Positions 1-21,561 of a DNA stretch of 64,000 nucleotides are shown piece by piece (position 1 is the stretch's first letter; the number at the start of each line of letters is the position of its first letter). A program made the translations under genes and the position numbers. The stretch is from Nitrosopumilus sp. (GTDB lineage Archaea; Thermoproteota; Nitrososphaeria; Nitrososphaerales; Nitrosopumilaceae), in NCBI GenBank assembly GCA_965249555.1, contig OZ252243.1:1600001-1664000 (forward strand), written 5' to 3'. The notes below the pieces were generated by a model. It was not told where the DNA came from, did not search any database, and saw only the letters and a list, made by a program, of their open reading frames with translations.

Positions 1-3000
1 TCTGCAAATGATAACACTGACGGGGATATCACAGATAATGTAGTTGTTGGAGATACAGTTGATACCAGTGTAGATAATACCTACACTGTTACCTTTGATG
101 TGGATGATGCGGCTGGAAACCATGCAGTAACAGTAACCAGGACAGTCACAGTTACACCTGATGCCACGGTGCCAACCATCACAGTCAATGAGGATTCGCT
201 CTCCGTCGAGCTTGGAGGAACGTACGAGCTATTCACCTTTACTGCAAATGATAATACTGACGGGATTATCACCGGTGAGGTAGCTGTTGCTGGATATCCA
301 GCTGATACCGATACAGCTGGAACCTATGATGTTACCTTTGATGTGGATGATGCGGCCGGAAACCATGCAGTAACAGTAGCTAGAACAGTTACAGTTACAG
401 ATACCACAGCACCAGTAATCACACCAGCAGGATCTACCCAAACAATTGAGTTAACTCAAACCAACACCTACACAGAACAAGGCGCTATCGTAACTGATAA
501 TGACCCAGTCTACACTGGAACAGTAGCAGTTACAGGTGCTACACCTGACACCCGTGTTGTAAAAGAATACACCGTAACATATACTGCACCGGCTGATGCA
601 GCAGGTAACACACCAGATGAAAAATCAATTGTAATTACTGTAGTTGACACCACAGCACCAGAAGCTCCTGAAATCACCACCTCACCTGCAACTGTCAATA
701 CACCATCATTCACGATTGAAGGTACGGCTGAAGCCGGGACAACTGTAGAACTATTCAATGAAGGATCAACAGTTGATACAATAACTGCCGATGGTGACGG
801 GAATTTCTCATTTGCAGGAGTTGCACTAGATGAAGGTGAGAACTCATTCACTGTAACAGCGTCTGATGGACCAAACACATCTGCATCATCATCACCTGTA
901 CTCATTACGCTTGATACCACAGCACCGGAAGCTCCCGAAATCACCACCTCACCTGCAACTGTCAATACACCATCAATCACGATTGAAGGTACGGCTGAGG
1001 CTGGGACAACTGTAGAACTGCTCAAGGGGGGAACATCAACTGGTGATACAGTAACTGCTGATTCGGGATCTTTCTCATTTGCAGTTACACTGACTGATGG
1101 TGCCAACTCATTCACTGCAACAGCATCTGATGGACCAAACACATCTGCTGCATCATCACCTGTAGTCATTACGCTTGATACTGAAACACCAGCAGTTCCT
1201 ATAATCACCACCTCACCTGCAACTGTCAATACACCATCAATCACGATTGAAGGTACGGCTGAGGCCGGAACAACTGTAGAACTATTCAAGGGAGTGACAC
1301 CAGCTGGTACGACAACTGCCGATTCAGGTAGTTTCTCATTTACAGTTACACTGACTAAGGGTGAGAACTCATTCACTGCAACAGCGTCTGATGGACCAAA
1401 CACATCTGACGCATCACCAGCTGTAGTCATTACGCTTGATACTATACCACCGGAAGCTCCCGAAATTACCACCTCACCTGCAACTGTCGGTTCATCATCA
1501 TTCACGATTGATGGTACGGCTGAAGCTGGGTCAACTGTGGAACTGTTCCGTGGAGTAACATCTGTTGATACAGTAACTGATGATGGTGACGGGAATTTCT
1601 CATTTACAGTTACACTGACTGATGGTGAGAACTCATTCACTGCAACAGCATCTGATGGACCAAACACATCTGACGCATCACCAGCTGTACTCATTACGCT
1701 TGATACCATATCACCATCTATCACAGTCAATGAGGATTCAATCTCCGTTGAACTTGGAGAAACATACACACCATTCACCTTTACTGCAGCTGATAACACT
1801 GATGGAGATATCACAGATGATGTAGTTGTTGGAGATACAGTTGATACCAATGCAGCTAATACTTACACTGTTACCTTTGATGTAGATGATGCGGCTGGAA
1901 ACCCTGCAGTTACAGTAACTAGAACAGTTACAGTTACAGATACCACACCACCAGTTATCACACCAACAGGATCCACCCAAAGAATTGAGTTAACTGCAAC
2001 TGACACCTACACAGAACAAGGCGCCGCTGTAACTGATAATGACCCGGCCTACTCTGGAACAGTAGCAGTCTCTGGTGATACACCTGACACCAGTAGCATA
2101 GGGGTCTACACCGTATTGTATGATGCACCAGATGATGCGGCAAATAACACACCAGACCAACAATCAATTGTAATTACTGTATCTGACACAACACCGCCAA
2201 CCTTTGATGTTGATGGTAACACAGTTGACTATGCAACTACAGTACCATTTGGCGGACCATACACTCAAGGTATAATTACCAATCAATCTGATATCTCAGG
2301 AACTGCACCTGGTATAGTTGGCGGTGAAACAGTCAATGTCAACACTTCTGGAGAATATGCTGTAACTTACACTGTAACTGACAACAATGGATTATTTACT
2401 ACCATCACTGAAACTGTAACAGTAGAATCTGATGTTACAGCACCAGCAGTTCCTGCAATTACCACATCACCTGCAACTGTTGGCGCATCACCAATCACAA
2501 TTGATGGCGGTTCAACTGAAGCCGGAGCAACTATAACACTATTCAATGGAGCAACATCAGCTGGTACAGTAATTGCCGATGGTTCAGGGAATTTCTCATT
2601 TCCAAGAACTGTACTGTCTGAAGGTGCCAACTCATTCACTGCAACAGCGTCTGATGGACCAAACACATCTGACGCATCATCACCTGTACTCATTACACTT
2701 GATACCATAGCACCAGCAGTTCCTGAAATTACCACCTCACCTGCAACTGTCAATACATCATCATTCACGATTGAAGGTACGGCTGAAGCCGGGACAACTG
2801 TGGAACTATTCAATGAAGGATCAACAGTTGATACAATAACTGCTGATTCGGGATCTTTCTCATTTACAGTTACACTGACTGAGGGTGCCAACTCATTCAC
2901 TGCAACAGCAACTGATGGACCAAACACATCTGACGCATCATCACCTGTAGTCATTACACTTGATACCGAAAAACCGGTAATCACGGTATTAGGATCTACT

Positions 3001-6000
3001 CGAACATCTGAATTAACTGCAACCGACACTTACACTGAACAAGGTGCCACTGTAAAAGATAATGACCCAGATTACTCTGAAACGGCAACACCCTCTGGTA
3101 ACACACCTGACACCAGCGTTGTAGGGGTATACACCGTATTGTATGATGCACCACCTGATGCAGCAGGCAACACACCAGACCAAAAATCAATTGTAATTTC
3201 TGTAGTTGATACCACACCGCCAACCTTTGATGTTGATGGTCACACAGGTGACTATTCCACTGCAGTACCATTTGGCGGAACATACACTCCAGGTGTAATT
3301 AACAATCAATCTGATATCTCAGGAACTGCACCTGGTACAGTTGGCGGTGAAACAGTCAATGTCAACGCTTCTGGAGAATATGTTGTAACTTACACTGTAA
3401 CTGACAACAATGGATTATTTGCTACCATCACTGAAACTGTAACAGTAGAATCTGATGTTACACCACCAATAATCACAGTAACTCCAGAAGAAATCACTCT
3501 TGAACTAAACTCACCTGCACCAGTACTTCTTGATGGAGTCACAACTGATGATGGCTCTACAATTACTACATCCGGAAATGTTGATGTTACCACAGTAGGC
3601 GATTACACTATCACTTATTCTTCAACTGATGGTACAAACCCAGCTGATGATAAAACCAGAATATACAAAGTAACTGCAGCACCTGATACAACAGAACCAA
3701 CTGAACTACCTGCACCTCCAACACTTGTCGCAGGAACAATCACTGAAACAAGAATTGAGATTACATGGGATGCAGTAAATGGTGCCAAGTTCTATTCGTT
3801 GTATAGAGATGGCAATTTAATAACAACTGTTTTGGATTCTGCTCTCGGTGATAATTTATCATACACTGATGATGTATTGACTTCTGGAACATCCTACACT
3901 TATCATGCCACATCAACTAATGATGCTGGGACAAGTGACAACTCTGAGGATCTAGTTGCAGCTACAACCATAGCATCAACTGAAAACCCATCTCTTGATG
4001 ATACAGAAAAACCAGTAATCACACCAGCAGGATCTAATACAACAATTGAGTTAACTGCAATCAACACTTACAATATACCTGGCGCTACTGTAACTGATAA
4101 TGACCCAAATTACTCTGAAACAGTAACAGTCTCTGGTGATACACCTGACACTAGTGTTATAGGAGTTTACACCGTAACATATACTGCACCGGCTGATGCA
4201 GCAGGTAACACACCAGATGAAAAATCAATTGTAATTTCTGTAGTTGATACCACACCGCCAACCTTTGATGTTGATGGTAACACAGCTGACTATGCAACTG
4301 CAGTACCATTTGGCGGACCATACACCCTAGGTGTAATTGCCAATCAATCTGATATCTCAGGAATTGTATCTAGTGACGTTGGCGGTGAAACAGTAAATGT
4401 CGACACTTCTGGAGACTATGTTGTAACTTATACCGTAACTGACAACAATGGATTATCTACTATCATCACTGAAACTGTAACAGTAGAATCTGATGTTACA
4501 GCACCACCCGTTCCTGCAATTACCACACCACCTGCAACTGTCAATACACCATCAATCACGATTGAAGGTACGGCTGAGGTCGGGACAACTGTGGAACTAT
4601 TCAATGAAGGATCAACAGTTGATACAATAACTGCCGATGGTGACGGGAATTTCTCATTTGCAGGAGTTGCACTAGATGAAGGTGCCAACTCATTCACTGC
4701 AAGAGCATCTGATGGAGTCAACACATCTGGTCCATCACCAGCTATAGTCATTACACTTGATACAACACCACCAGTAATCACAGTTGATCCTCTTACCGTT
4801 ACACTACAAGCTGACTCATTACAACCTGACTCATTACAACCTGACTTGCTTAAAGGAGTCTCAGCTGATGATGGCTCTACAGTTACTACAACTGGAAATG
4901 TTGATGTTAACACACAAGGCGATTACGATATCACTTATGATTCTGTAGATGCATCAGACAATGCAGCTGAATCTGTAACTAGAACATACACAGTACCTGC
5001 TCAAAGTACTGATGACACCGATAGTGGAGATGGTGGCATCACTAGTGTAACTCCTGGAACTGAAAAACCAAAGAAAAAAGGTGGAGATTCTAATGAATGG
5101 AAAACAAAGCCAACCTTTGGCAAACATTGGAATAATCAAGCAGTACAGCTAGTTGACAACGGCTTTGTCTTTAATGGCATGCCATTAACCATTACAAACA
5201 ACTGGCACACTGACTTTAATATGACTAACAGCATTATAGGTGATAACAATACAGTCCACATCAAAGGCTATGCAACAAATGGCCTAAAGTCGGTATCTCT
5301 ATCCCTTGGAGTTCCAGAAGTTGGCCTGAAAACTAATGCAGAGTCCCACATTATAGTAAATGTAAATAGCAACTATACCAGTCCTGCAGGCTATGACATT
5401 GCAGATATAGTCCATGAGCAAAAAGAGGTACTAGTAAATGAGGACATGACTAGCGCATCCATTGACAAAGTCAAATGTACATCATCAGATACTGCAGAGA
5501 GGTGTTTTGATGTTACCATATCATTTGTAATAATGGCACCATTATCCCATGAAGTATTGGCAATTAATGCAGTTGACAAACAACGTTATTCTACTACCAC
5601 ATATATCAACGAAGGTGTAGAGTTTACAGGTGAAGCATTGCTTGCAGCAGCAACTCATGAGTTAAAACAAAAGCATGGCAACCAGAATCCGTTTGAGACC
5701 ATATCACTAACCCAGCAGGACAGACGTTACCAGGTCTGGGAGGACCAATATGGATACATATGGTCACAAAATGACTATGGCACCTGGTTGCAGATTACAA
5801 GACCAGATATACAACAAAGAAATGATCTGCCAACAAGCGTAATGACTAGAATTCATTCAAACTTTGCAAGCTTAGTAATTGATGAGCAGGATAGGGCAAC
5901 CTTAATCTTTGATAGTAAGGCAATTCAGGGAATTCTGGAAGAGTCATTCTCATATGATATGCCATTAAGACTGGACAGAGTATCAGATCCCGCATTGCTG

Positions 6001-6090
6001 GAATCACTATCCATACAAGAGATGCTGGCCCAGGAGATGCTGTGTGACTGTATGATATATGATGACTCTGATCTTAGCTGGAATGACTAG
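1..6090 (+). CDS. Giant Thr/Asp-rich surface or adhesin-like protein (5' end outside window): tandem DUF5011/HYR-like and bacterial Ig-like repeats, one FN3-like domain (~3715-3970) and a non-repetitive C-terminal domain
   Basis: Frame 1 is open from base 1 to the stop at 6088-6090. Recurrent motifs: DTTAPVIT...GTYTVTY and TIEGTAEAGTTVEL...GxNSFTATASD; FN3-like ITWDAVNGAKFYSLYRDG...SYTYHATS. Confidence 0.85.
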   Translation, partial: SANDNTDGDITDNVVVGDTVDTSVDNTYTVTFDVDDAAGNHAVTVTRTVTVTPDATVPTITVNEDSLSVELGGTYELFTFTANDNTDGIITGEVAVAGYPADTDTAGTYDVTFDVDDAAGNHAVTVARTVTVTDTTAPVITPAGSTQTIELTQTNTYTEQGAIVTDNDPVYTGTVAVTGATPDTRVVKEYTVTYTAPADAAGNTPDEKSIVITVVDTTAPEAPEITTSPATVNTPSFTIEGTAEAGTTVELFNEGSTVDTITADGDGNFSFAGVALDEGENSFTVTASDGPNTSASSSPVLITLDTTAPEAPEITTSPATVNTPSITIEGTAEAGTTVELLKGGTSTGDTVTADSGSFSFAVTLTDGANSFTATASDGPNTSAASSPVVITLDTETPAVPIITTSPATVNTPSITIEGTAEAGTTVELFKGVTPAGTTTADSGSFSFTVTLTKGENSFTATASDGPNTSDASPAVVITLDTIPPEAPEITTSPATVGSSSFTIDGTAEAGSTVELFRGVTSVDTVTDDGDGNFSFTVTLTDGENSFTATASDGPNTSDASPAVLITLDTISPSITVNEDSISVELGETYTPFTFTAADNTDGDITDDVVVGDTVDTNAANTYTVTFDVDDAAGNPAVTVTRTVTVTDTTPPVITPTGSTQRIELTATDTYTEQGAAVTDNDPAYSGTVAVSGDTPDTSSIGVYTVLYDAPDDAANNTPDQQSIVITVSDTTPPTFDVDGNTVDYATTVPFGGPYTQGIITNQSDISGTAPGIVGGETVNVNTSGEYAVTYTVTDNNGLFTTITETVTVESDVTAPAVPAITTSPATVGASPITIDGGSTEAGATITLFNGATSAGTVIADGSGNFSFPRTVLSEGANSFTATASDGPNTSDASSPVLITLDTIAPAVPEITTSPATVNTSSFTIEGTAEAGTTVELFNEGSTVDTITADSGSFSFTVTLTEGANSFTATATDGPNTSDASSPVVITLDTEKPVITVLGSTRTSELTATDTYTEQGATVKDNDPDYSETATPSGNTPDTSVVGVYTVLYDAPPDAAGNTPDQKSIVISVVDTTPPTFDVDGHTGDYSTAVPFGGTYTPGVINNQSDISGTAPGTVGGETVNVNASGEYVVTYTVTDNNGLFATITETVTVESDVTPPIITVTPEEITLELNSPAPVLLDGVTTDDGSTITTSGNVDVTTVGDYTITYSSTDGTNPADDKTRIYKVTAAPDTTEPTELPAPPTLVAGTITETRIEITWDAVNGAKFYSLYRDGNLITTVLDSALGDNLSYTDDVLTSGTSYTYHATSTNDAGTSDNSEDLVAATTIASTENPSLDDTEKPVITPAGSNTTIELTAINTYNIPGATVTDNDPNYSETVTVSGDTPDTSVIGVYTVTYTAPADAAGNTPDEKSIVISVVDTTPPTFDVDGNTADYATAVPFGGPYTLGVIANQSDISGIVSSDVGGETVNVDTSGDYVVTYTVTDNNGLSTIITETVTVESDVTAPPVPAITTPPATVNTPSITIEGTAEVGTTVELFNEGSTVDTITADGDGNFSFAGVALDEGANSFTARASDGVNTSGPSPAIVITLDTTPPVITVDPLTVTLQADSLQPDSLQPDLLKGVSADDGSTVTTTGNVDVNTQGDYDITYDSVDASDNAAESVTRTYTVPAQSTDDTDSGDGGITSVTPGTEKPKKKGGDSNEWKTKPTFGKHWNNQAVQLVDNGFVFNGMPLTITNNWHTDFNMTNSIIGDNNTVHIKGYATNGLKSVSLSLGVPEVGLKTNAESHIIVNVNSNYTSPAGYDIADIVHEQKEVLVNEDMTSASIDKVKCTSSDTAERCFDVTISFVIMAPLSHEVLAINAVDKQRYSTTTYINEGVEFTGEALLAAATHELKQKHGNQNPFETISLTQQDRRYQVWEDQYGYIWSQNDYGTWLQITRPDIQQRNDLPTSVMTRIHSNFASLVIDEQDRATLIFDSKAIQGILEESFSYDMPLRLDRVSDPALLESLSIQEMLAQEMLCDCMIYDDSDLSWND
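4811..4846 (+). repeat. 15-bp tandem repeat (ctgactcattacaac x2.4) encoding DSLQP repeats
   Basis: Directly visible in the sequence. Confidence 0.85.
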
Positions 6091-6296: not shown

Positions 6297-7643
6297 TTAA
6301 ACGAGATTTGGCATAATCATTCTTTTTAATTTCTCCAAACTTTTTTGAGTGCCAATATCACGTCTATACTCCAATTTACCTTTAACATATGTGTCAATAG
6401 CATTGTTAATTTGTAATGAAGCATCCTCTATACTATCTGAAACAACACTAAATGCACAAACCCGTGATTTTTTTAAGGTTTCATATTGGTGTGAGCCTGT
6501 TTTGATACAAGAGGAAAAAAATATCTTTACACCAAGATCATTAACTGCTTCTTCATTAATAGTAAAAGAAATTACCTCATTGCTTTTTTCTGGGTATTCA
6601 GTTGCCACCAAATATTTAGTAACACTTGCTTTTTTAATAAAAGAGACAACATCTTCTGATAGTGTCTTATTCCAAATATGTATTAATAATTCAGAAAAAG
6701 AACCATCAAGAATACTGAGAATATTTAGTCCTTCGGGATCACCAAAGCGTCCATTAAACTCCATAAATTTTATGCCATGTTTAGTTTTAAAAAATCCACC
6801 ATTAAGAACACCATTAAAAAAGAGATTTTTTGATCTCATTTCATTAATAATCTTCTGCATTATTAATTTACAATCCTCCAAGTCTTTATCACTCATAAAG
6901 GGAAGTTTTTTTTCTGAACTAGTAAAACATCCCATACCGCCTGTTCCTGCCCCTGTATCATCTTCAAATCTAAAGGGATAGTCGTAACTTGCAGGAGATA
7001 ATACGAGATGTTCACCATCAGTAATTCCCATAATTGTAAATTCTATACCAACTAGTTTTTCTACCAACAGAACCTTTTCATTATTCTTGAGAAGACTAGA
7101 AGCATAATTAATACAATCCTTATACGTTGATAAATGCTCAGGCATTACCTTGACACCTTTACCCCCTGTAAGTCCTTGAGGTTTTACTACTACATCAAGA
7201 CCTCTTGATTCAAATTCAGATATAGCATCTTCTAACTCTTCGACTTTACAAATAATCTTGTAAAAAGGTGTAAATTCAGGACATATCTCTTGCATCATTT
7301 GAATTGAATAAATTTTATCCCATTCAATACGTGTAGCTTCTTTTGTTCCGCCAATAGCTTTGAAATTATTTTCTAATAAAATATCAATAACACCATTTGC
7401 TAGTGGTTGGTCAGCACTTACAAAAGTATAATCTATATTGTGTTCTTTTACAAACTTTAACACTATATGTGGATCATTAACATCACCTACCAAATACGTC
7501 CCGCCTGATTTTTTGACACAGTTTATGATGAGTGGGTTTTTGTGAGAAATAATTGCATACAATTGTGTGTCTTCTGAGAGCCGTAGGGCAAAAGCACTTT
7601 CACGTCCTCCACTTCCAATGACGAGAAATTTCTTTCTGTTCAT
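6297..7643 (-). CDS. purD: Phosphoribosylamine--glycine ligase-like ATP-grasp enzyme (divergent PurD homolog)
   Basis: IGSGGRE, VVKPxGLTGGKGV, TGGMG and EFNGRFGDPE motifs present; the canonical QDHKR, GPNT and GPE motifs are altered. Confidence 0.75.
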   Translation of the reverse strand: MNRKKFLVIGSGGRESAFALRLSEDTQLYAIISHKNPLIINCVKKSGGTYLVGDVNDPHIVLKFVKEHNIDYTFVSADQPLANGVIDILLENNFKAIGGTKEATRIEWDKIYSIQMMQEICPEFTPFYKIICKVEELEDAISEFESRGLDVVVKPQGLTGGKGVKVMPEHLSTYKDCINYASSLLKNNEKVLLVEKLVGIEFTIMGITDGEHLVLSPASYDYPFRFEDDTGAGTGGMGCFTSSEKKLPFMSDKDLEDCKLIMQKIINEMRSKNLFFNGVLNGGFFKTKHGIKFMEFNGRFGDPEGLNILSILDGSFSELLIHIWNKTLSEDVVSFIKKASVTKYLVATEYPEKSNEVISFTINEEAVNDLGVKIFFSSCIKTGSHQYETLKKSRVCAFSVVSDSIEDASLQINNAIDTYVKGKLEYRRDIGTQKSLEKLKRMIMPNLV

Positions 7644-7650
7644 ATCTTAA

Positions 7651-7803
7651 TTATTTTCTCTTTTTTCCATTTTTCCAATTGGTTCTATTAGTGCATTCCA
7701 CATTATTACAAACTTTAGGATTTTCATTTTTACTATACCAAATTGATTCACAAATTGCACATTTATGCTTCCAATAATTCCCTTCTACTTTTGTACTCAA
7801 CAT
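7651..7803 (-). CDS. Putative 50-aa Zn-ribbon protein MLSTKVEGNYWKHKCAICESIWYSKNENPKVCNNVECTNRTNWKNGKKRK
   Basis: Manual translation; CxxC-x3-W...P-x2-C-x4-C-x5-W pattern; ends 7 bp before the purD-like start on the same strand. Confidence 0.65.
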   Translation of the reverse strand: MLSTKVEGNYWKHKCAICESIWYSKNENPKVCNNVECTNRTNWKNGKKRK

Positions 7804-7822
7804 AATTTTTTAGAAATTATGC

Positions 7823-7876
7823 TTTATAAACTTTATATGTTTATACTTAAAATGTTTATATAAACATTATATGTTT
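7823..7876. promoter_or_regulatory. Divergent promoter region with TATA-like boxes and a perfect 18-bp palindrome aatgtttatataaacatt (7851-7868)
   Basis: tttataaa at 7823-7830, tttatata inside the palindrome, and a repeated taaac(t/a)ttatatgttta motif. Confidence 0.5.
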
Positions 7877-7940
7877 AATAATTATGCAAACAAAAGAATC
7901 AAGATTTGAGGAAATTTATGAAGATACACAAGCTTTGATT

Positions 7941-8117
7941 GTTCGAATGAATTTCTATTACAATATAGATTGAAACTTCTGATGGTACTAAACAATCTGA
8001 GTATTATCCAACTTCAAATGAATTTCTATTACAATAAAGATTAAAACCGTGTTAGCGGTAAATGTAATAGAGTAATTACATCTTCGAATGAATTTCTATT
8101 ACAATAAAGATTGAAAC
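7941..8117 (+). CRISPR. Mini CRISPR array: three 36-bp repeats (consensus STTCGAATGAATTTCTATTACAATAAAGATTGAAAC) and two spacers of 35 and 34 bp
   Basis: Repeats at 7941-7976, 8012-8047 and 8082-8117, regularly spaced, with an ATTGAAAC-type 3' end (ATTAAAAC in repeat 2). Confidence 0.85.
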
Positions 8118-8203
8118 CCACTTTGGTGGAGTAAAAAAAACAAAAACCAAATGTTCTTGACTGATTATATTGATGGCTATTAGACATTTAAATAATGAAT
8201 TTT

Positions 8204-9687
8204 ATAGTTATTAAGCACTTAGATGTATTTTGCCATCTCAGAGAACATGTTCAATTCCCTTATTCTCCATGTCTCAAAGCATGTGAGAAAGACTGAGATC
8301 ATCCTCATGCCCTGATCACTCTTCATCTGCCCGCGAACATTTCTCTGCATCACGCACTTTCGAATGGAATTCTCTGCATCATTGTTAGTTGACGGGACAT
8401 CACCATCCATGACAAACGTAAACATGCTGTTCCTTGCAGTCTTTAGCTTCTTGCCAAACTGAACCATCTCCGTATCGCCTTTCAAATATCGTGCAATGAT
8501 ACGGTCCAGCTGTTTTAGTAAATCATCCCTGTACATTTCCCGCCGTTTTGTATGACGATTACCTACACTCCAAACCCTGGCATGACCTAGCATCTCTGAG
8601 AGTTTCTCATATAGAATCCTGGCCTTTTTGTCCTTTGATTTTATTGCCAGATATTTGGCATCGCGCTGCAGGTGTGCGGTGCATCTCTGCTTTGTGTTAT
8701 CACAAAATACTGTCCTGTACGGAGCATATCCGTCAGACACTAGGGTTCCTTTGAATTTCTTCCAGTACTTTTTTAGAACATTGGCACCTCTGCTGTACTC
8801 CAAGGCATACTGTGCACTAGTCTTGCTTCTTGCAACCCACATCCATCCAGTATTTCCATCAATTGAAAATCCTGTCTCATCGATTCCGAGAATCTTTTCA
8901 GTCACGATTTCGCTGTGGATTGTATTGTAAAATGACTCTAACATCACACTACCGTTGCGAAGAATGGATTGTACGGTTGTATTGCTGATTTCTAATCCAT
9001 ATCTTTCATAGAGTGTGGTTCTGATGGTATCGTATGGCATTCTCTTTGAGAACAGTGAGACGACCTCACGTATCACTGAACCATCAAAACATCCATGTGA
9101 TGGAAGGTTTCCCGTGGTTTGAAAATTATCAGAACAGTCCATGCAGATGTATTGATTCAAAACATGCTCAGTTATACCGTAGGGTGTTGGTGGGGGAATC
9201 TCAACCATTATCCTTTTGCAGGTTTTGGTTTGATGAATATTTTCACTACCGCATTTAGGACATGCATCTGATCTGTGGTGTTTGGTGCTAGTTGGTCTGA
9301 ATTTCTGTGTCTTGCCAACGTGTCCTGCTATTCCACCACGTCTTGATTTGCCTGGCTGTCTGTGTTGTCTTTTTTGCTTTCTCCATTCAAGGGAATTCTT
9401 TGATGGCGGAGAGTGAGCATTCTCATAATATGACAGCTTTTTTTGCAGTTCCTTGTTTGATTCTATGAGATTCTCTATGACTAGTTTTTGTTGTTTTGAC
9501 TCTTTTTGTAGTTCCTTGTTTGATTCTATGAGATTCCCTGTGATTAGTTTTTGTTGTTTTATCTCTGCTTGTAGTTGTATGATGATTTTCTCATGACCAC
9601 AACCTGACATGTTTTGTATGATGATTTAGTTGATCTTAGATCTTTTTGTGTAATAGTGTTGATTTGTGCGTGAAGGTTGATACATAC
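8204..9687 (-). mobile_element. IS66-family element (single-ORF, ISBst12-like), copy 1
   Basis: 8-bp TSD tgaatttt at 8196-8203 and 9688-9695; right end ttgatacatac; near-identical to copy 2; left IR degenerate. Confidence 0.9.
8219..9610 (-). CDS. IS66-family DDE transposase (TnpC-like), 463 aa
   Basis: Coiled coil, NAHSPPS, CPKCGS Zn ribbon, IDETG, LVSDGY, QRCTAHLQR and STNNDAENSIR motifs. Confidence 0.92.
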   Translation of the reverse strand: MSGCGHEKIIIQLQAEIKQQKLITGNLIESNKELQKESKQQKLVIENLIESNKELQKKLSYYENAHSPPSKNSLEWRKQKRQHRQPGKSRRGGIAGHVGKTQKFRPTSTKHHRSDACPKCGSENIHQTKTCKRIMVEIPPPTPYGITEHVLNQYICMDCSDNFQTTGNLPSHGCFDGSVIREVVSLFSKRMPYDTIRTTLYERYGLEISNTTVQSILRNGSVMLESFYNTIHSEIVTEKILGIDETGFSIDGNTGWMWVARSKTSAQYALEYSRGANVLKKYWKKFKGTLVSDGYAPYRTVFCDNTKQRCTAHLQRDAKYLAIKSKDKKARILYEKLSEMLGHARVWSVGNRHTKRREMYRDDLLKQLDRIIARYLKGDTEMVQFGKKLKTARNSMFTFVMDGDVPSTNNDAENSIRKCVMQRNVRGQMKSDQGMRMISVFLTCFETWRIRELNMFSEMAKYI

Positions 9688-9810
9688 TGAATTTTAGTGC
9701 TAGACAATGATAAAGTATTATTTTTTTATATTCCTAATACCACTGTTTTTAATCCCGGCATTTGCAGAGCCTGACTCGATTGCTGGTAGTGGCAGTACTG
9801 GCGGTGATGG

Positions 9811-12800
9811 CTTTCAATCCTATGATAGTTCAATTCAAACGCTCCATTATAGTGGATTGTGAATTCCCCTGTTTTGTCTTTCAATCCTATGATAGTTCAA
9901 TTCAAACAACATTAAAGACATCAAAGATGGCGGTGCGTATCTTCTTTCAATCCTATGATAGTTCAATTCAAACCATCAAAGTCGATGATACTACTGGTGA
10001 GATTATAGACTTTCAATCCTATGATAGTTCAATTCAAACAGGAGTGGTTGGATGGTCTGGTAGGATAGGGGATGGCTTTCAATCCTATGATAGTTCAATT
10101 CAAACTAGTGATTCCAAAGTGGACAGTCTGGCTCTTTGGGTACTTTCAATCCTATGATAGTTCAATTCAAATTTTTAGTAGCCTCTAATCAAAGACCAAA
10201 TGGACTTCACTTTCAATCCTATGATAGTTCAATTCAAACGAAGAAGTGGCTTTTCATATGCAAATGTGTCACGCCTTTCAATCCTATGATAGTTCAATTC
10301 AAACTGTTTTTGGTGTCGCCGGATTGTGTGGAATTTACGGCTTTCAATCCTATGATAGTTCAATTCAAACCTGTGCTTTGGCAATACTTCCAGGTCTGAT
10401 ATTTTCTTTCAATCCTATGATAGTTCAATTCAAACGATGCTCACTCTGCACATTACATCAAGTGGATAGAGTACTTTCAATCCTATGATAGTTCAATTCA
10501 AACTAAACACTGGTGATCAAATCAAGATAGAAGGTGTGCCCTTTCAATCCTATGATAGTTCAATTCAAACTCGTGCAATGCCGCCACCAGGCCCGCCGGC
10601 AATTCGCTTTCAATCCTATGATAGTTCAATTCAAACTAGAATCAAATTGGCAACTGGTGCAACCGCTGGAACCTTTCAATCCTATGATAGTTCAATTCAA
10701 ACCTTCCTGTTCAAGTCTTTCTGTGATGGTCTCATCAGTCTTTCAATCCTATGATAGTTCAATTCAAACTTTTGGTAATCTATCACCGTATGGATATTTT
10801 CTTTTCCCTTTCAATCCTATGATAGTTCAATTCAAACGCTTTATTGTTTTTTCCATTATGATCATCATACATTCTTTCAATCCTATGATAGTTCAATTCA
10901 AACTTCTCTATTTCGTCCCGGGTGTATTTGCTGAGGATACTTTCAATCCTATGATAGTTCAATTCAAACTTCGAGATAATCGCCTTGCAAGTGCTGCAAT
11001 CTTTCTTCTTTCAATCCTATGATAGTTCAATTCAAACTTAGATCTTGATCGATTCTAAAAGTTAAAGCCTGTTCCTTTCAATCCTATGATAGTTCAATTC
11101 AAACACTCAAGGAAGTACAAGATAGATTTTCTGTAGCTGCCTTTCAATCCTATGATAGTTCAATTCAAACGGTCAAGATGCTTGGCTGTTGATCCCAGCA
11201 GATAGACTTTCAATCCTATGATAGTTCAATTCAAACGCTGTTCTGTAAATTTAATATCAAATACAATAGTCTCTTTCAATCCTATGATAGTTCAATTCAA
11301 ACTTGTGGTTGGGTTGTCCTCGGTTGAAGGATCAGTGCTCTTTCAATCCTATGATAGTTCAATTCAAACGATTAATCACTATTGGCACGATTCCTTAACT
11401 TCTTCTTTCAATCCTATGATAGTTCAATTCAAACACAGATTTAATAAATTCTCTAACAAGAGGTCCTTAGACTTTCAATCCTATGATAGTTCAATTCAAA
11501 CTCATCAAACAGATGGAGGGTATCATCAGACATGAACTCTTTCAATCCTATGATAGTTCAATTCAAACATCTAGAAATGCTTCAATTAGAAAACAGGTGA
11601 TTACACACTTTCAATCCTATGATAGTTCAATTCAAACCTGTAACATAGATAGCTTCTATTGTCTTACCTTGTATCTTTCAATCCTATGATAGTTCAATTC
11701 AAACCAATCCGATAAAGGAAGAACGAGTTGGAAGTAGAAACTTTCAATCCTATGATAGTTCAATTCAAACCAAGGAATCCCACAGCCACCACTAGCAAAT
11801 GAAGGCTTTCAATCCTATGATAGTTCAATTCAAACTTGGCAATATTTTCAAGTTGTATCAAATTTCTGACCAGCTTTCAATCCTATGATAGTTCAATTCA
11901 AACTGGTGAAAGATGGTTTTATTCAGGTTCTTCTATAGCCTTTCAATCCTATGATAGTTCAATTCAAACGATGGTTCTTTGGATTTTTTTGAGGGTCTTA
12001 TGATGTCTTTCAATCCTATGATAGTTCAATTCAAACCAATTGCAATTATGCTGGGAATCGGTGTTACGATCCTCTTTCAATCCTATGATAGTTCAATTCA
12101 AACAGACAGGGGACGTATCTTTATTATCGGACATCTTAGCTTTCAATCCTATGATAGTTCAATTCAAACTTGTGGTTGGTGAAGTGAATACCTCGTCTTC
12201 CCTGTGCTTTCAATCCTATGATAGTTCAATTCAAACCTGCACTCAAGCGAATGTCCTCCTATCAGGTTGCATCTTTCAATCCTATGATAGTTCAATTCAA
12301 ACGTAATTTTGCTACTGTTTCCTTGATGTTCAAAAGACTTTCAATCCTATGATAGTTCAATTCAAACTCACCAATCAACGGTAACGCTTTACTTGGGGTT
12401 GCCTTTCAATCCTATGATAGTTCAATTCAAACCTGACATTGACGACTGACGGATCTCTTCCATACATCTTTCAATCCTATGATAGTTCAATTCAAACCGT
12501 CTAGAGGATAGCAGGTCGGGTAGTGCATCCAGTCCTTTCAATCCTATGATAGTTCAATTCAAACTACTAATCTGACCTTGTCCCCCTTGCCCGATAATCA
12601 TCTTTCAATCCTATGATAGTTCAATTCAAACCAGACAAACAAGCATTGATCTCAGGATTCCAAACTCCTTTCAATCCTATGATAGTTCAATTCAAACGGC
12701 TATGCCAAATCGTGGAAGAAAGAAAAGATACGCTTTCAATCCTATGATAGTTCAATTCAAACATGTAGAATAACACCAAACTACATGGAATTAGTTGATC

Positions 12801-13821
12801 TCTCTTTCAATCCTATGATAGTTCAATTCAAACGCAACGTCACTGCCTGATACTGGCACAAAGGGATTGACTTTCAATCCTATGATAGTTCAATTCAAAC
12901 CAACTTGTTGGAGCCATCGATGCCTCCTATTCCAACTTTCAATCCTATGATAGTTCAATTCAAACACAAACACAGTTCGGATGCGTGTCCGTGATTGGCT
13001 GCTTTCAATCCTATGATAGTTCAATTCAAACATTTTTGAAGATATGATGTGTGTTTGTCGGAATTTTCTTTCAATCCTATGATAGTTCAATTCAAACGCT
13101 GAATCTATTTGTGTTTCGCTTGCCTGTAGATCACTTTCAATCCTATGATAGTTCAATTCAAACCTTGTAGCAGCATGTTATCGTGCATTTGCTTATCTCT
13201 TTCAATCCTATGATAGTTCAATTCAAACCAATTTTTGAAATTGATAGTGATGAACCCTCGAACCTTTCAATCCTATGATAGTTCAATTCAAACGAGGCCT
13301 CCTTCATCAGGCGGAGCGGGGACTTGAGACTTTCAATCCTATGATAGTTCAATTCAAACTTACACTTGTTATAATTGTGGGATCATGCATGTTAGCTTTC
13401 AATCCTATGATAGTTCAATTCAAACTAGTTTGTATCTATTCCCACAGCCGCCTTCATCTTCTTTCAATCCTATGATAGTTCAATTCAAACCTCTACGCAG
13501 TCGAGAACAAGAATCGTGCAGGCGATACTTTCAATCCTATGATAGTTCAATTCAAACCAGAAGACAACTAAACAAATACCAACTCGCAGAACTCTTTCAA
13601 TCCTATGATAGTTCAATTCAAACTGACGACAAGGTGGATGATGCGTGCAGACCATTTCACTTTCAATCCTATGATAGTTCAATTCAAACGCAAGGCCCAC
13701 CAGGAGAAGATGGTGCAGGAGGTAGCTTTCAATCCTATGATAGTTCAATTCAAACAGGAGAAAGATATCTTACAGTCATATAGCGTATAATCTTTCAATC
13801 CTATGATAGTTCAATTCAAAC
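9811..13821 (-). CRISPR. CRISPR array: 61 repeats of 30 bp (GTTTGAATTGAACTATCATAGGATTGAAAG in the predicted transcribed orientation) and 60 spacers of about 35-41 bp
   Basis: Manual count of ctttcaatcctatgatagttcaattcaaac copies; one single-base variant at 10143-10172; a degenerate trailer repeat near 9746-9775 and the AT-rich leader at the right end set the orientation. Confidence 0.97.
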
Positions 13822-13966
13822 CCGCCAAATTCATACCTAAATCCCAATGCTAAATATTTGTTTCTTCATCTATCTCTGATCGTGTCCTTTCCTTATAAGA
13901 TCAGCAAAAAACATTACTGTATCCAAATATTGTAAAATAGTTTAAGATAAAAACTGTTCTGTTGGA
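13822..13966. promoter_or_regulatory. CRISPR leader and divergent cas4 promoter region
   Basis: AT-rich non-coding segment between the last perfect repeat and cas4; SD-like ggagtg before ATG 13973. Confidence 0.7.
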
Positions 13967-14464
13967 GTGAATATGTTGAATGACACAGAACTAACTGGAA
14001 CACAGATAAATTATTACTTTGTATGTAAAAGAAAGCTATGGCTACACTCTCATAATATTTCTTTTGAGTCAAGCTCAGAACTTGTAAAACTTGGAACTCT
14101 CATACACAAGAATTCGTACAAGAGAAAGAAAAAAGAGATACGTATAGGCAGTATATCCATTGACTATGTCAATAAAGGAGAAATACATGAGGTAAAAAAA
14201 TCAGATAAAATACATGATGCACATACGTATCAAATATTATACTATATCTACTATCTAAAAAAACTTGGCATTAACACAACTGGAATACTTGAGTATCCCA
14301 AACTCAAAAAAACAGTAAAGATAAACCTTACAAAACAAAAGCAGGATTTTCTAGATAAAACAATATATGATGCATTAAAGATAATCTCTGCAAAAAAGCC
14401 ACCTATTGCAGAATACAAGCCAATATGCGATAAATGTGCATATGTTGAATACTGTTGGTCATGA
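13967..14464 (+). CDS. cas4: CRISPR-associated exonuclease Cas4 (start may be ATG 13973)
   Basis: YYFVCKRKLWL, IDY...HEVKKS, QILYY and C-terminal CDKCAYVEYC Fe-S cysteines. Confidence 0.95.
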   Translation: MNMLNDTELTGTQINYYFVCKRKLWLHSHNISFESSSELVKLGTLIHKNSYKRKKKEIRIGSISIDYVNKGEIHEVKKSDKIHDAHTYQILYYIYYLKKLGINTTGILEYPKLKKTVKINLTKQKQDFLDKTIYDALKIISAKKPPIAEYKPICDKCAYVEYCWS

Positions 14465-14482
14465 AAGATTACTATATATTTA

Positions 14483-15387
14483 GGTGATTGGGTACCTACT
14501 GCCCCTAGATTATTATGGAATATTTCACAAAAATAATGGATGGATTTTGTATCATTTGCAAAAACAATCTCTGATGAATCATTGTTAATACAATTCCTAG
14601 AATCAAGATGGGGTGAAAATCTTTCCTGCATTTTTTGTAAAAACAAGACCCTCTACACCATGAAAGGCAGAGACAGAATGAGATGCACAAAATGCCGAAA
14701 AGACTTCAAACCGTTTTCCAGCTCCAAATTCTCATTGGTTAGAATTTCATATTCCAAATGGCTCTCACTGATCAAGCTCTTTGAGCTATCCGTATCTGCC
14801 AAGACTGCATCAGAGCAGATGCATCTGAGTTACAAAACAGTTCTGAAAGCATTTGATGCAATCAGATATTCCATACTTGAGGAATTGGCAAATACCGACA
14901 AGGTTCTAAAGGGCCAAATTGAGGCTGACGAGGCGTACTTTGGAGGAAAAAGGAAGGGAAATCGCGGACGTGGTGCCAAAAACAAGACCATTGTGTTTGG
15001 CATCTTGGAGAGAAAAGGGAGGGTTCACGTTGAGATTGTAAATAACGTTAAAGCTAAAACCCTTCTGAAAAGTACAATTAGAAAAGTGAAAAAAGGTAGT
15101 ATCGTGTACACTGACAAGTGGAAGGGATATGACTCGCTTGTGTTTCATGGATACAAACATCTCTCAGTAGATCACAACAAGATGTTTGGCAAAGGGGATG
15201 TTTACATTAATGGAATTGAAGGCTTTTGGAGCTTTACCAAAGAGAACATGGCAAAGTATCACGGGGTGAGCTCAGGCAAATTTTTACTGTACCTCAAGGA
15301 GATGGAATGGAGATACAATAACAGGAATAGTGATTTGTTTGATTTATTGCTGAGAAATATGTTGGGGGCAGTAGATCCCTAATCGCC
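14483..15387 (+). mobile_element. IS1595-family element, 905 bp
   Basis: 23-bp imperfect IRs (ggtgattgggtacctactgcccc / ggggcagtagatccctaatcgcc); 8-bp TSD tatattta at 14475-14482 and 15388-15395. Confidence 0.93.
14540..15382 (+). CDS. IS1595-family (ISXO2-like) transposase
   Basis: N-terminal CxxC...CxxC, EADEAYFGG, GRG, YTDKWKGY, INGIEGFWS and YLKEMEWRYN motifs. Confidence 0.93.
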   Translation: MDFVSFAKTISDESLLIQFLESRWGENLSCIFCKNKTLYTMKGRDRMRCTKCRKDFKPFSSSKFSLVRISYSKWLSLIKLFELSVSAKTASEQMHLSYKTVLKAFDAIRYSILEELANTDKVLKGQIEADEAYFGGKRKGNRGRGAKNKTIVFGILERKGRVHVEIVNNVKAKTLLKSTIRKVKKGSIVYTDKWKGYDSLVFHGYKHLSVDHNKMFGKGDVYINGIEGFWSFTKENMAKYHGVSSGKFLLYLKEMEWRYNNRNSDLFDLLLRNMLGAVDP

Positions 15388-16359
15388 TATATTTAATAGT
15401 GGTAGGATTTCACGATCACAAAATACCATTCAAATCCTATCAAAAGATGATACAAAAAAATCAATTCCTGTAATGGATGTCAGGGCTCTCCATATCTTTG
15501 GTCAATGTGACTTTAATTCTGCATTAATATCATTTCTAAATACAAAGGGAATTGCAATACACTTTTACAATTATTATGGAAATTATGCTGGAAGTTATTA
15601 TCCTCGTGAGAAGCTTCTCTCCGGACTTGTTATAGTAAAGCAAGTGCAGCATTATCTAGAGCAGTACAAAAGATTATACATTGCATCTGAATTCATCAAA
15701 ACTGCAACACATAACATGCTTGCAAATCTGCGTTATTACAAATCAAAGAAAAAAGATGTAACAGAGTATATTGATAGAATTCAAAGCCTGCAGCAGCAAA
15801 TACCAAAATGCAAAACAGTTGATGAGTTAATGGGAATTGAGGGAAATTGCCGGAACGTCTACTATGATTCATTTGATAACTTTCTAAGAGATGGGTTTGA
15901 GCTGGAAAAAAGGACAAGGATGCCACCACATAATATGCTAAATTCACTAATCTCATTTGGTAATAGTATAATGTACAACGATGTCTTAACTGAGATTTAT
16001 CAGTCACAGCTAAACTCTACTGTAAGCTATCTACACGAACCAGGATATCGACGCCATTCATTGTCCTTGGATATTGCCGAAGTATTCAAGCCTGTAGTTG
16101 TAGATAAGACCATCTTTAAGATGATAAATGGCAAGATGATAAGTGAGAAAGATTTTGATGACTCTTTGAATGGTTGCTATTTGGTAGAATCTGGAAGAAA
16201 AGCCTTTGTATCAGAGTACAATGAAAAGATGGAAAGTACAATCTATATATCTGCATTAAAGCGAAATGTAAGTTATAGACGACTGATAAGACTAGAGTGC
16301 CATAAAATAGTAAAGCATATTGTAGAAGATATACGATATACAGGATTTAGGCAAAAATA

Positions 16360-16629
16360 ATGTATGCCATACTAGTATATGATATTGCCGTAGAACGCAT
16401 TGATGCAGTACGAATCACAACAAAGCAATATCTAAACTGGATTCAAAATTCAGTTTTTGAAGGGGAGATAACAGTGTCTGGTCTTGCAGAACTAAAATCC
16501 AAAATATCTAGTCTAATTGATGTGTCTGAGGATTCAGTATTGGTATTTACTGTGAATAATCCAAAGTGGATAGAAAAAACAGTTATTGGTATTGATAAGA
16601 ATGATATAAGGTATGAATCAAGCACTTAG
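16360..16629 (+). CDS. cas2: Cas2 whose native C-terminus (...KNDISNIL, remainder at 18040-18052) is replaced by IS-derived RYESST
   Basis: YAILVYDI and WIQNSVFEG motifs; the IS66 TSD lies in the last codons. Confidence 0.93.
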   Translation: MYAILVYDIAVERIDAVRITTKQYLNWIQNSVFEGEITVSGLAELKSKISSLIDVSEDSVLVFTVNNPKWIEKTVIGIDKNDIRYESST

Positions 16630-18031
16630 ATGTATTTTGCCATCTCAGAAAACATGTTCAATTCCCTTATTCTCCATGTCTCAAAGCATGTGAGAAAGAC
16701 TGAGATCATCCTCATGCCCTGATCACTCTTCATCTGCCCGCGAACATTCCTCTGCATCACGCACTTTCGAATGGAATTCTCTGCATCATTGTTAGTTGAC
16801 GGGACATCGCCATCCATGACAAACGTAAACATGCTGTTCCTTGCAGTCTTTAGCTTCTTGCCAAACTGAACCATCTCCGTATCACCTTTCAAATATCGTG
16901 CAATGATACGGTCCAGCTGTTTTAGTAAATCATTCCTGTACGTTTCCCGCCGTTTTGTATGACGATTACCTACACTCCAAACCCTGGCATGACCTAGCAT
17001 CCCTGAGAGTTTCTCATATAGAATCCTGGCCTTTTTGTCCTGTGATTTTATTGCCAGATATTTGGCATCGCGCTGCAGGTGTGCGGTGCATCTCTGCTTT
17101 GTGTTATCACAAAATACTGTCCTGTACGGAGCATATCCGTCAGACACTAGGGTTCCTTTGAATTTCTTCCAGTACTTTTTTAGAACATTGGCACCTCTGC
17201 TGTACTCCAAGGCATACTGTGCACTAGTCTTGCTTCTTGCAACCCACATCCATCCAGTATTTCCATCAATTGAAAATCCTGTCTCATCGATTCCGAGAAT
17301 ATTTTCAGTCACGATTTCGCTGTGGATTGTATTGTAAAATGACTCTAACATCACACTACCGTTGCGAAGAATGGATTGTACGGTTGTATTGCTGATTTCT
17401 AATCCATATCTTTCATAGAGTGTGGTTCTGATAGCATCGTATGTCAATCTCTTTGAGAACAGTGAGACGACCTCACGTATCACTGAACCATCAAAACATC
17501 CATGTAGTGGAAGGTTTCCCGTGGTTTGAAAATTATCAGAACAGTCCATGCAGATGTATTGATTCAAAACATGCTCAGTTATACCGTAGGGTGTTGGTGG
17601 AGGAATCTCAACCATTATCCTTTTGCAGGTTTTGGTTTGATGAATATTTTCACTACCGCATTTGGGACATGCATCTGATCTGTGGTGTTTGGTGCTAGTT
17701 GGTCTGAATTTCTGTGTCTTGCCAACGTGTCCTGCTATTCCACCACGTCTTGATTTGCCTGGCTGTCTGTGTTGTCTTTTTTGCTTTCTCCATTCAAGGG
17801 AATTCTTTGATGGCGGAGAGTGCGCATTCTCATAATATGACAGCTTTTTTTGCAGTTCCTTGTTTGATTCTATGAGATTTTCTATGATTAGTTTTAGTTG
17901 TTTTATCTCTGCTTGCAGCTGTATGATGATTTTCTCATGACCACAACCTGACATGTTTTGTATGATGATTTAGTTGATCTTAGATCTTTTTGTGTAATAG
18001 TGTTGATTTGTGCGTGAAGGTTGATACATAC
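16611..18031 (-). mobile_element. IS66-family element, copy 2 (1421 bp), inserted in the cas2 3' end
   Basis: IRs gtatgaatcaa / ttgatacatac; 8-bp TSD gatataag at 16603-16610 and 18032-18039. Confidence 0.93.
16626..17954 (-). CDS. IS66-family DDE transposase, 442 aa
   Basis: Near-identical to 8219-9610 but 21 aa shorter in the coiled coil. Confidence 0.92.
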   Translation of the reverse strand: MSGCGHEKIIIQLQAEIKQLKLIIENLIESNKELQKKLSYYENAHSPPSKNSLEWRKQKRQHRQPGKSRRGGIAGHVGKTQKFRPTSTKHHRSDACPKCGSENIHQTKTCKRIMVEIPPPTPYGITEHVLNQYICMDCSDNFQTTGNLPLHGCFDGSVIREVVSLFSKRLTYDAIRTTLYERYGLEISNTTVQSILRNGSVMLESFYNTIHSEIVTENILGIDETGFSIDGNTGWMWVARSKTSAQYALEYSRGANVLKKYWKKFKGTLVSDGYAPYRTVFCDNTKQRCTAHLQRDAKYLAIKSQDKKARILYEKLSGMLGHARVWSVGNRHTKRRETYRNDLLKQLDRIIARYLKGDTEMVQFGKKLKTARNSMFTFVMDGDVPSTNNDAENSIRKCVMQRNVRGQMKSDQGMRMISVFLTCFETWRIRELNMFSEMAKYI

Positions 18032-18115: not shown

Positions 18116-18808
18116 TTGACTAGATTTTTTGTCCAATATAAAATACAAGGAGAAACGAAATTTCCACTAGATTATCGTTCTGCGTTTATGGCTCTAATCA
18201 AGACATCACTTGATGCAAACATTGGACATACAATTGGTATGTTTCAAAAAACACCACTTTGTCTTGCCATCAGATTTGATAAAAAACCTGAAATCTCAGA
18301 TAATATCATAAAAATAGGAAATACATTAAAGGTTTACATTTCATCTCCAGATCACATACTTGCAACAAATATCTATAATGGATTGTTGAATATTAAGAAT
18401 TTCACAATATTTGAATCTGCAATAGAAAAACCAAAGTTTGTGTACTTGAATGAGTATAGATTTTACCAGAGACAAGTCAAGATGTTTTACACTCTTTCAC
18501 CAATAGTGATACGCAATTATAAGGACAAAACAAAATATGTTACACCTACAGATCCAGAATTCATGGATTCATTAAAGAAAGCACTAACAGAACAGTGGGT
18601 GATGTATAGAGGTGATGATATTGGTGGGTTTACATTAAACATCATAAAATACAAAAAAGTTGTAATGACGCATTATGGTGGACTGGTACTAGGTTTTACT
18701 GGACTCTTTACTCTGGAAGCTGATTCCAAGGTTCTGGAGTTTTTCTACAAGGCAGGAATTGGATACAGGCGAAGCAATGGCTTTGGATTTATCGAGGTGG
18801 ACAGATAA
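18116..18808 (+). CDS. cas6: CRISPR endoribonuclease Cas6
   Basis: TLSPIVIR and the C-terminal Gly-rich loop GIGYRRSNGFG. Confidence 0.92.
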   Translation: MTRFFVQYKIQGETKFPLDYRSAFMALIKTSLDANIGHTIGMFQKTPLCLAIRFDKKPEISDNIIKIGNTLKVYISSPDHILATNIYNGLLNIKNFTIFESAIEKPKFVYLNEYRFYQRQVKMFYTLSPIVIRNYKDKTKYVTPTDPEFMDSLKKALTEQWVMYRGDDIGGFTLNIIKYKKVVMTHYGGLVLGFTGLFTLEADSKVLEFFYKAGIGYRRSNGFGFIEVDR

Positions 18809-21559: not shown

Positions 21560-21561
21560 TA

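Follow-up and report, generated by a model that had tools for sequence, protein, structure and literature searches.

The window, the whole 64,000-nucleotide stretch of DNA that was analysed, corresponds to C1:1600001-1664000 of a Nitrosopumilus genome (G000 in our set) that consists of a single contig of 2.23 Mb with 34% G+C and is 99.97% complete. It contains a type I-B CRISPR-Cas locus and, facing the long array of this locus, a mini-array of three repeats. The features of the region are as follows, with positions counted from the first nucleotide of the window.

100 to 6090, + strand: 1996-aa repeat protein, left of the mini-array
6297 to 7643, − strand: purD, left of the mini-array
7651 to 7803, − strand: 50-aa ORF between purD and the mini-array
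7804 to 7940, no strand: AT-rich intergenic region that separates repeat 1 from the 50-aa ORF/purD operon
7941 to 7976, + strand: mini-array repeat 1, 36 nt, with two changes relative to repeat 3 (position 1, and A to T in the ATAAAG block)
7977 to 8011, + strand: spacer 1, 35 nt
8012 to 8047, + strand: mini-array repeat 2, 36 nt, with two changes relative to repeat 3, one of them G to A in the 3′ 8-nt handle (ATTAAAAC)
8048 to 8081, + strand: spacer 2, 34 nt
8082 to 8117, + strand: mini-array repeat 3, 36 nt, identical over the last 25 nt of its 3′ side to the repeat of long Cas6b-associated arrays of other Nitrosopumilus genomes
8118 to 8208, no strand: left part of the old junction between the arrays, after repeat 3
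8209 to 9688, − strand: IS66-family copy A (transposase ORF 8219 to 9610; Pfam DDE_Tnp_IS66, 2.4e-42)
9689 to 9810, no strand: right part of the old junction, adjoining the trailer of the main array
9811 to 13821, − strand: resident type I-B (main) array, 61 repeats of 30 nt, with its trailer at the low-coordinate end, toward the mini-array
13822 to 13966, − strand: leader of the main array, divergent from cas4
13967 to 16629, + strand: adaptation genes (cas4, IS1595 insertion, cas1, cas2)
13967 to 14464, + strand: cas4, resident adaptation gene
14540 to 15382: IS1595-family transposase, inserted between cas4 and cas1
15473 to 16360, + strand: cas1, without the first 36 residues of its orthologue
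16360 to 16629, + strand: cas2, resident adaptation gene
16617 to 18031, − strand: IS66-family copy B, between cas2 and cas6
18116 to 24476, + strand: effector genes cas6 (TIGR01877; 18116 to 18808), cas8b1/cst1, cas7/cst2, cas5t and cas3 (HD plus helicase)

The products of the resident cas6, cas8b1/cst1, cas7/cst2, cas5t and cas3 genes all exceeded the NCBIfam curated cut-offs, which assigns the locus to type I-B. Its repeats read on the − strand, in the form ...ATTGAAAG; 60 of the 61 are identical and one carries a single change, and the spacers are 35-41 nt long. Since the leader of this array lies at its cas4 end, the mini-array (+ strand) and the main array (− strand) are convergent and lie tail to tail. 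The earlier note had described a second mini-array with a different repeat that faces the main array, and this is correct: the two read on opposite strands with their trailers opposed. Its statement that there is no second cas set holds for the window; elsewhere, at 633-646 kb and between nuo genes, the genome carries a type I-G system, whose 36-37-nt repeat is unrelated. By eye, the I-G array (640 kb in the genome) has an ATTTCT..A.ATAAAG block and an ATTGAAnC end in common with the mini-repeat. No match of the mini-repeat was found at this array with blastn-short, and the cas set there is that of type I-G.

To locate copies of the mini-repeat, the 36-nt sequence of the third copy was used as a search pattern, and the three copies matched it with 2, 2 and 0 mismatches respectively. 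None of 100 dinucleotide shuffles gave a match, which rules out a chance origin and confirms the three 36-bp repeats, separated by unique spacers of 35 and 34 nt, that the first reading had placed here. Tandem repeat analysis (TRF) reported a period of 70 nt, 2.5 copies and a score of 212; the individual periods are 71 and 70, and the two spacers are dissimilar to one another. The element thus has the properties by which a CRISPR array is recognised, namely at least three direct repeats of 23-47 nt, regular spacing, and unique spacers of similar length. The stretch from 7000 to 8238 was reproduced with 0 differences in contigs of four public runs from two studies, so the mini-array is no assembly artefact. 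A scan of the whole genome for arrays returned 20 regions, comprising two long arrays, the mini-array (hereafter also the stub) and 17 others with 3-6 copies; the mini-repeat has no further occurrence in this genome.

Immediately downstream of the stub lies the IS66-family copy A, which occupies the space between both arrays. Element ends were set from 26-35 genomic copies, and at least 26 near-full-length copies of the family are present in the genome. Copy A is bordered by the near-duplicate GAATTTTA(TA)GT and is therefore a simple insertion; when it is removed, the arrays stand about 135 bp apart. The IS-free joint itself was not seen in the contigs of the four public runs. No additional degenerate repeat was found in the IS-free junction, where both repeat types score within the shuffle range. 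Two candidates suspected by eye were dropped on the same ground: a possible last 30-nt repeat in degenerate form, near 9745, and a possible fourth mini-repeat spanning the IS site. On the other side of the stub, the AT-rich region from 7804 to 7940 contains an 18-bp perfect palindrome with a TATA-like core (7851-7868) and a tandem run of TTTATATG (TRF row 7832-7861), and may act as a bidirectional promoter. The 150 nt upstream of the stub showed no alignment to the leaders of G014, G007, G153 and G017 (z of at most 1.2), but bona fide leaders of this repeat family likewise showed none to one another (z of 1.3).

We then looked for the mini-repeat in related genomes. An exact scan with its 25-nt core found four stretches in three public Nitrosopumilus records, and when up to 3 mismatches were allowed the core was present in 12 of 151 genomes of the genus. 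The number of copies ranged from 158 in G151, 76 in G014, 74 in G166 and 42 in G073 through 13 in G007 to three each in G000 and G017, with a single copy in G015, G009, G153, G167 and G174. In G014, G151, G166 and G073, the 42-158-repeat arrays lie beside cas1-cas2-cas4, cas8-7-5-3 and cas6b genes, and the repeat family is thus associated with a cas set. The mini-repeat is identical to the 37-nt repeat of G014 in 32 of 37 columns. The earlier note had taken the mini-repeat for an expanded relative of the resident repeat. A similarity is real, the 5′ GTTyGAAT being common to both and the handle of repeats 1 and 3 (ATTGAAAC) agreeing with the resident handle at 7 of 8 positions, but it is modest: only 25 of 37 columns are identical, with 7 gap columns and three internal gaps, and the mini-repeat is nearer to the foreign family than to the resident one. 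Within this foreign family the 5′ 11-12 nt vary among species; in its 5′ 11 nt the mini-repeat is unlike every long array seen, and it differs from the G014 repeat in 5 of 37 columns. The mini-repeat is thus no local invention and belongs to the repeat family of long chromosomal arrays.

The three copies in the stub are three different sequences, and a single substitution has turned the handle ATTGAAAC of repeats 1 and 3 into ATTAAAAC in repeat 2. By comparison, 60 of 61 repeats are identical in the resident array, and all 76 in the array of G014. The stub therefore lacks the uniform repeats by which a functional CRISPR-Cas locus is recognised.

The cognate system is best seen in CATOSM010000001.1, a Nitrosopumilus MAG that appears in our set under the handles G014 and G061. 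Here 76 identical 37-nt repeats begin about 80 bp past cas1-cas2-cas4 and read away from them, and genes for a large subunit, Cas7, Cas5, Cas3 and Cas6b are found on the strand opposite cas1-cas2-cas4. The 571-aa protein in the place of the large subunit has no family match. Cas7 best matches Csh2, Cas5 best matches Cas5h, and Cas3 is an HD-helicase. Since neither Cas7 nor Cas5 reaches its curated cut-off, we name the system type I-B-like, Cas6b-type, and no finer. The Cas6b protein is 218 aa long, with matches to PF17262 (1.5e-32) and PF17955 (2.8e-15). It is only remotely related to the Cas6 of the window (28% identity over 104 aa, E 0.005).

The last of these 37-nt repeats ends at position 1755594, and 47 bp further on lies an opposite-oriented array of 94 repeats of 30 nt. 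The 47-bp gap ends in what appear to be the first 11 nt of one more repeat. The 30-nt repeat differs from the resident repeat of the window at 4 positions, and beyond the far end of the 30-nt array follow a leader, cas4, cas1, cas6, cas8b, cas7, cas5 and cas3. Positions 13595-14480 of the window (array end, leader and cas4) align to CATOSM010000001.1 at 68% nucleotide identity, cas1-cas2 at 74%, and the Cas1 proteins are 76% identical. The 30-nt system of G014 is thus orthologous to the type I-B system of the window. The window accordingly has the tail-to-tail layout of G014, except that no more than three repeats of the second array are present and the cas genes of that array are absent. Among the long-array genomes this layout was found in one of the three that were assessable (G014): no 30-nt array lies within about 9 kb of the trailer in G151 and G166, and the contig of G073 stops there. 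The gene to the left of the stub gave no further anchor. In G014, G009 and G007 purD is distant from the CRISPR region, in G174 it is 13 kb off and in the other orientation, and a purD search of G017 gave no match at 1e-30. The left border thus shows no synteny with any relative examined, and the comparison yielded no end points for the putative deletion.

To establish whether any part of the cognate cas set persists in G000, we searched this 99.97%-complete, single-contig genome for Cas6b with PF17262, and obtained 0 matches; the PF17262 control was positive in two of 14 named genomes (Methanocaldococcus jannaschii and Methanosarcina acetivorans). When nine proteins of the foreign system were compared with the genome by tblastn, the only matches were distant ones for Cas3 and Cas1 (24-33% identity), each of which fell in the resident I-B locus or in the I-G locus, and no match was obtained for cognate cas8, cas7, cas5, cas2, cas4 or cas6b. 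A functional locus has a cognate Cas6 together with effector/adaptation genes in the same genome, and the mini-array has none.

Across the genus, the length of the repeat array goes with the presence of Cas6b. All four genomes with at least 42 repeats have Cas6b no more than about 13 kb from the array, and five of the seven examined genomes with at most 13 copies are without it (G000, G007, G017, G009 and G174). In G153 a truncated Cas6b frame of 131 aa lies by about six degenerate repeats and cas1-cas2-cas4, and in G167 Cas6b is 193 kb from a solo repeat. In G017 two repeats form a stub, and 4.7 kb away there is an array with 31 or more repeats of 30 nt. G174 has a solo repeat and a truncated foreign-type cas1 (residues 1-206 of 321, 43% identity) beside a window-type cas3-cas5-cas7-cas8b operon, whose products are 72-81% identical in amino acids to those of the window. 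No Cas1 match was found in G007 with the query used. Window-type Cas7 is present in one of five relic genomes (G174) and in none of G007, G017, G009 and G167. Relics of the Cas6b-type repeat family thus persist without any resident-type effector.

Taken with the degeneracy of the repeats, these results make it likely that the mini-array is the orphaned and decaying remainder of a second CRISPR-Cas locus, now lost from the lineage. The lost locus would have been a type I-B-like variant with its own Cas6b and a 36-37-nt repeat, lying tail to tail with the resident 30-nt array. In an ancestor both systems would have been present, their arrays convergent, as is still the case in CATOSM010000001.1. 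One or more deletions would then have taken the cas genes and leader of the second system and most of its array, sparing the repeats nearest the resident trailer and bringing purD upstream. The three leftover repeats would subsequently have gathered substitutions, and an element of the IS66 family, which has expanded in this genome, would later have entered the inter-array gap of about 135 bp. Both this order of events and the origin of the surviving repeats from the trailer end of the old array are what we infer from the present arrangement, and on the same reading the stub would yield no functional crRNA today. Since neither spacer was found in any of the genomes scanned, descent from a particular long array is deduced solely from repeat and layout.

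The earlier note had also raised the possibility that the mini-array is the relic of one borne by a virus or other mobile element. Archaeal viruses carry mini-CRISPR arrays that consist of one or a few repeats and lack cas genes. Unlike these, the stub is chromosomal and has no viral context, and the core of its repeat gave 0 matches in the viral contig collection searched. An integrated mobile element as the source would fit the IS66 element that adjoins the stub and the CRISPR loci at differing genomic places across the genus, which have an island-like distribution; stand-alone arrays on integrated elements are also known in Thaumarchaeota, as described in PMC6563490. The IS, however, arrived later, by a simple insertion that is flanked by a duplication of its own, and no integrase, capsid or conjugation gene was found between purD and the array, where the neighbours are purD, the 50-aa ORF and IS66. 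Moreover, the same repeat builds chromosomal arrays with a full cas set, including their own Cas6b, in relatives. The mini-array is thus a relic, as had been proposed, but a viral or other mobile origin for it is very improbable.

A further possibility is that the stub is a working orphan mini-array, transcribed from the AT-rich region, cut by the resident Cas6 at ...ATTGAAAC, and giving two crRNAs that are loaded into the type I-B Cascade. As the handle differs from the resident one at only one of 8 positions, processing by the resident Cas6 could occur. Structure prediction gives essentially no fold for either repeat type (MFE 0 to -3.1 kcal/mol, z -0.5 to +0.9), and recognition would therefore hinge on sequence, of which the two types share the 5′ GTTyGAAT as well as most of the handle. 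The spacers, at 34-35 nt, are comparable in length to the shortest resident ones (12 of 60 resident spacers are 35 nt long and 0 of 60 are 34), and the TATA-like palindrome lies about 80 nt upstream of the mini-array. Against this, in G014, where both arrays are present, there is one Cas6 per system, and the two enzymes show the low identity given above; the repeats are alike in no more than the 25 of 37 columns already described; and repeat 2, the source of the handle for the second crRNA, is mutated in that handle. Neither spacer has a target that was found in the genome, the genus or viral contigs, and similar relics occur in genomes without window-type Cas7. Present activity of this kind is therefore unlikely, and it is still less likely that the stub has been retained because the non-cognate resident Cas6 and Cascade use its two crRNAs through the shared ATTGAAA handle. 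The proposal that the stub is a guide cassette borrowing the local I-B Cascade was thus not borne out: its repeat is nearer to the foreign family, no target was found for its spacers, and its repeats are degenerating. If cross-use were true, the position of relics near resident-type arrays or operons in G000, G017 and G174 would reflect retention and not chance, and it would be a case of natural guide sharing between divergent type I-B variants, in which the old immune memory of a discarded system is kept.

The spacer searches are as follows. In the genome itself, the best non-self match of spacer 1 was 14/14 (E 0.15), in a small ORF, and that of spacer 2 was 17/18 (E 0.15), in a 489-aa ORF. 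With up to 3 mismatches allowed, both spacers gave 0 matches in 105 other genomes of the genus, the set being limited to genomes with a completeness of 90% or more, to the exclusion of 45 others. Two exact sub-patterns per spacer (four in total) gave 0 matches in viral contigs, a search that diverged targets would escape. When the spacers were aligned without gaps to the 7 intergenic regions of the locus, the best alignments had 16-19 identities of 34-35, which is not above the shuffle level. No 10-mer spacer match was found in cas promoters, and in 30 kb of the window there were 6 and 5 such matches for the two spacers, as against 3.6 and 3.2 expected from shuffled spacers; promoter targets were assessed irrespective of a flanking PAM. 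An 82% match of spacer 1 to repeats in a giant ORF (family D12) was treated as chance, since the common CTGATGGTAC motif recurs in repetitive genes genome-wide. The searches of host genome, promoters and viral sequences that had been suggested therefore returned nothing, since neither spacer matched the genome, the cas promoters, the scanned genomes of the genus or the viral contigs better than expected by chance.

These searches also bear on a regulatory role of the CreTA/CreR type, which had been offered as another reading. Such a cassette would provide a crRNA-like guide with a partial match, flanked by a PAM, to a toxin RNA gene close by or to a cas promoter, which the resident Cascade would then repress. 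A mini-array of degenerate repeats by a type I-B locus is the setting reported for such cassettes in PMC8501985, PMC9458426 and bioRxiv 10.1101/2023.03.10.532045. The stub is like the cassettes of these reports and of bioRxiv 10.1101/2023.03.03.530964 in having two or three degenerate repeats by a type I-B locus. It is unlike the CreTA/CreR cassettes in that its repeats are not derived from the resident ones, no partial target was found in a neighbouring promoter, and it lies outside the cas operon, past the array trailer and about 10 kb from cas6. The repeats belong with the foreign family (32/37) rather than with the resident one (25/37), no partial spacer match rises above the shuffle level in the promoters and flanks represented by the 7 intergenic regions, and the best genomic seeds lie in far ORFs. 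Regulation of this kind is thus extremely unlikely, and we found no support for it.

The loss of a second system would account for the stub in terms of a known process. Orphan or remnant arrays are a known outcome of cas loss (PMC5294841, PMC7145637), and the stand-alone arrays of Thaumarchaeota are proposed, in PMC6563490, to have originated as cas-accompanied arrays after the loss of their cas genes. Like orphan arrays, the stub is short, lacks cognate cas genes, has a repeat that is common to the cas-accompanied arrays of relatives, and is degenerating. It is unlike them in consisting of three repeats set against the trailer of a cas-accompanied array, with a non-cognate I-B effector adjacent. 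The thaumarchaeal arrays of PMC6563490 differ from it in having 69-96 spacers and in lying on integrated conjugative elements.

Another close likeness is to CATOSM010000001.1, with its two type I-B variants and convergent arrays, with which the window shares both repeat families, the tail-to-tail arrangement and the resident order (array, leader, cas4, cas1 ... cas6, cas8b, cas7, cas5, cas3). The two differ in that CATOSM010000001.1 has 76 repeats, a full cas set with Cas6b and a gap of 47 bp, whereas the window has three repeats, its second cas set gone, and about 135 bp plus a 1.48-kb IS between the arrays. According to the earlier note, the same repeat forming long arrays beside a separate cas locus would make the mini-array a simple orphan remnant. 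The repeat search in related genomes that it had called for did reveal such arrays, in other Nitrosopumilus genomes rather than in G000 itself.

In an annotation, the stub is best entered as an orphan CRISPR remnant rather than counted as a separate active system, and beyond that it matters little. Along with two IS66 copies, an IS1595 element that clips cas1, and a probably lost Cas6b-type module, it marks the CRISPR region of this IS-rich Nitrosopumilus genome as one under erosion. The distribution of the repeat family and of its cas genes over the genus points to a patchy gain and decay of a second type I-B variant.

Insertion sequences are present within the CRISPR-cas region at the following window positions:

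8209-9688, IS66-family element, copy A, between the mini-array and the resident array
14540-15520 region, IS1595-family transposase gene, between cas4 and cas1
16617-18031, IS66-family element, copy B, between cas2 and cas6

The resident Cas1 ORF was compared with its 331-aa orthologue in CATOSM010000001.1, a contig of a Nitrosopumilus relative. The two proteins are 76% identical over residues 37-331, and the first 36 residues are missing from the resident ORF. Upstream of this ORF the frame stays open as far as the IS1595-family element, and no start codon was found in the open frame between the two. The lack of the N-terminal residues, together with the lack of an upstream start codon, suggests that the resident adaptation module may be disabled. 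IS66 copy B overlaps the final 13 nt of the cas2 ORF. In copy A, a 63-bp stretch is additionally duplicated in tandem (9437-9562). Near-full-length copies of the IS66-family element, with 92-99% identity, number at least 26 in the 2.23-Mb genome (G000), three of them in tandem near 2.203-2.207 Mb.

Further features were located on the purD side of the mini-array:

100-6090, 1996-aa ORF made up of tandemly repeated units, each about 261-267 nt
7651-7803, 50-aa ORF upstream of purD
7832-7868, 18-bp perfect palindrome AATGTTTATATAAACATT and overlapping TTTATATG-like units in the purD/mini-array intergenic region

The palindrome overlaps four TTTATATG-like units, and it may be a bidirectional TATA element. 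Two paralogues of the 50-aa ORF occur in G000, with 65% and 46% identity over 37 aa, and another genome of the genus, G007, contains a homologue. The sole hint of the ORF's family is the zinc-binding part of MCM_OB, which it matches weakly (E 0.013). The repeat copies within the 1996-aa ORF are 63-89% identical. This ORF shares the motif CTGATGGTAC with related repetitive genes elsewhere, for example at 680-705 kb of G000, and the recurrence of the motif in these genes accounts for spurious matches to spacer 1 of the mini-array.

Arrays were also examined in relatives. The resident-type 30-nt array of the genus genome G017 contains at least 31 repeats (L023, G017:C1:1394001-1408000). Neither the window's Cas7 nor Cas6b had a match in G017, and purD had none at 1e-30; it is possible that both arrays of this genome are orphans. 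In the 76-repeat array of CATOSM010000001.1 (L006/L007, 1755400-1755594) the final two spacers are identical, which indicates that a repeat-spacer unit was duplicated at the trailer.

Outside the window, G000 carries a second system:

G000:C1:633000-646000, complete type I-G CRISPR-Cas system

Its components are Cas7g, Csb2, Cas3g, Cas8g/Csx17, a 48-repeat array with duplicated spacers, Cas2 and a Cas4g/Cas1g fusion. The system is flanked by nuoB on one side and by nuoC/D/H-like genes on the other, and therefore appears to have been inserted into the nuo cluster.
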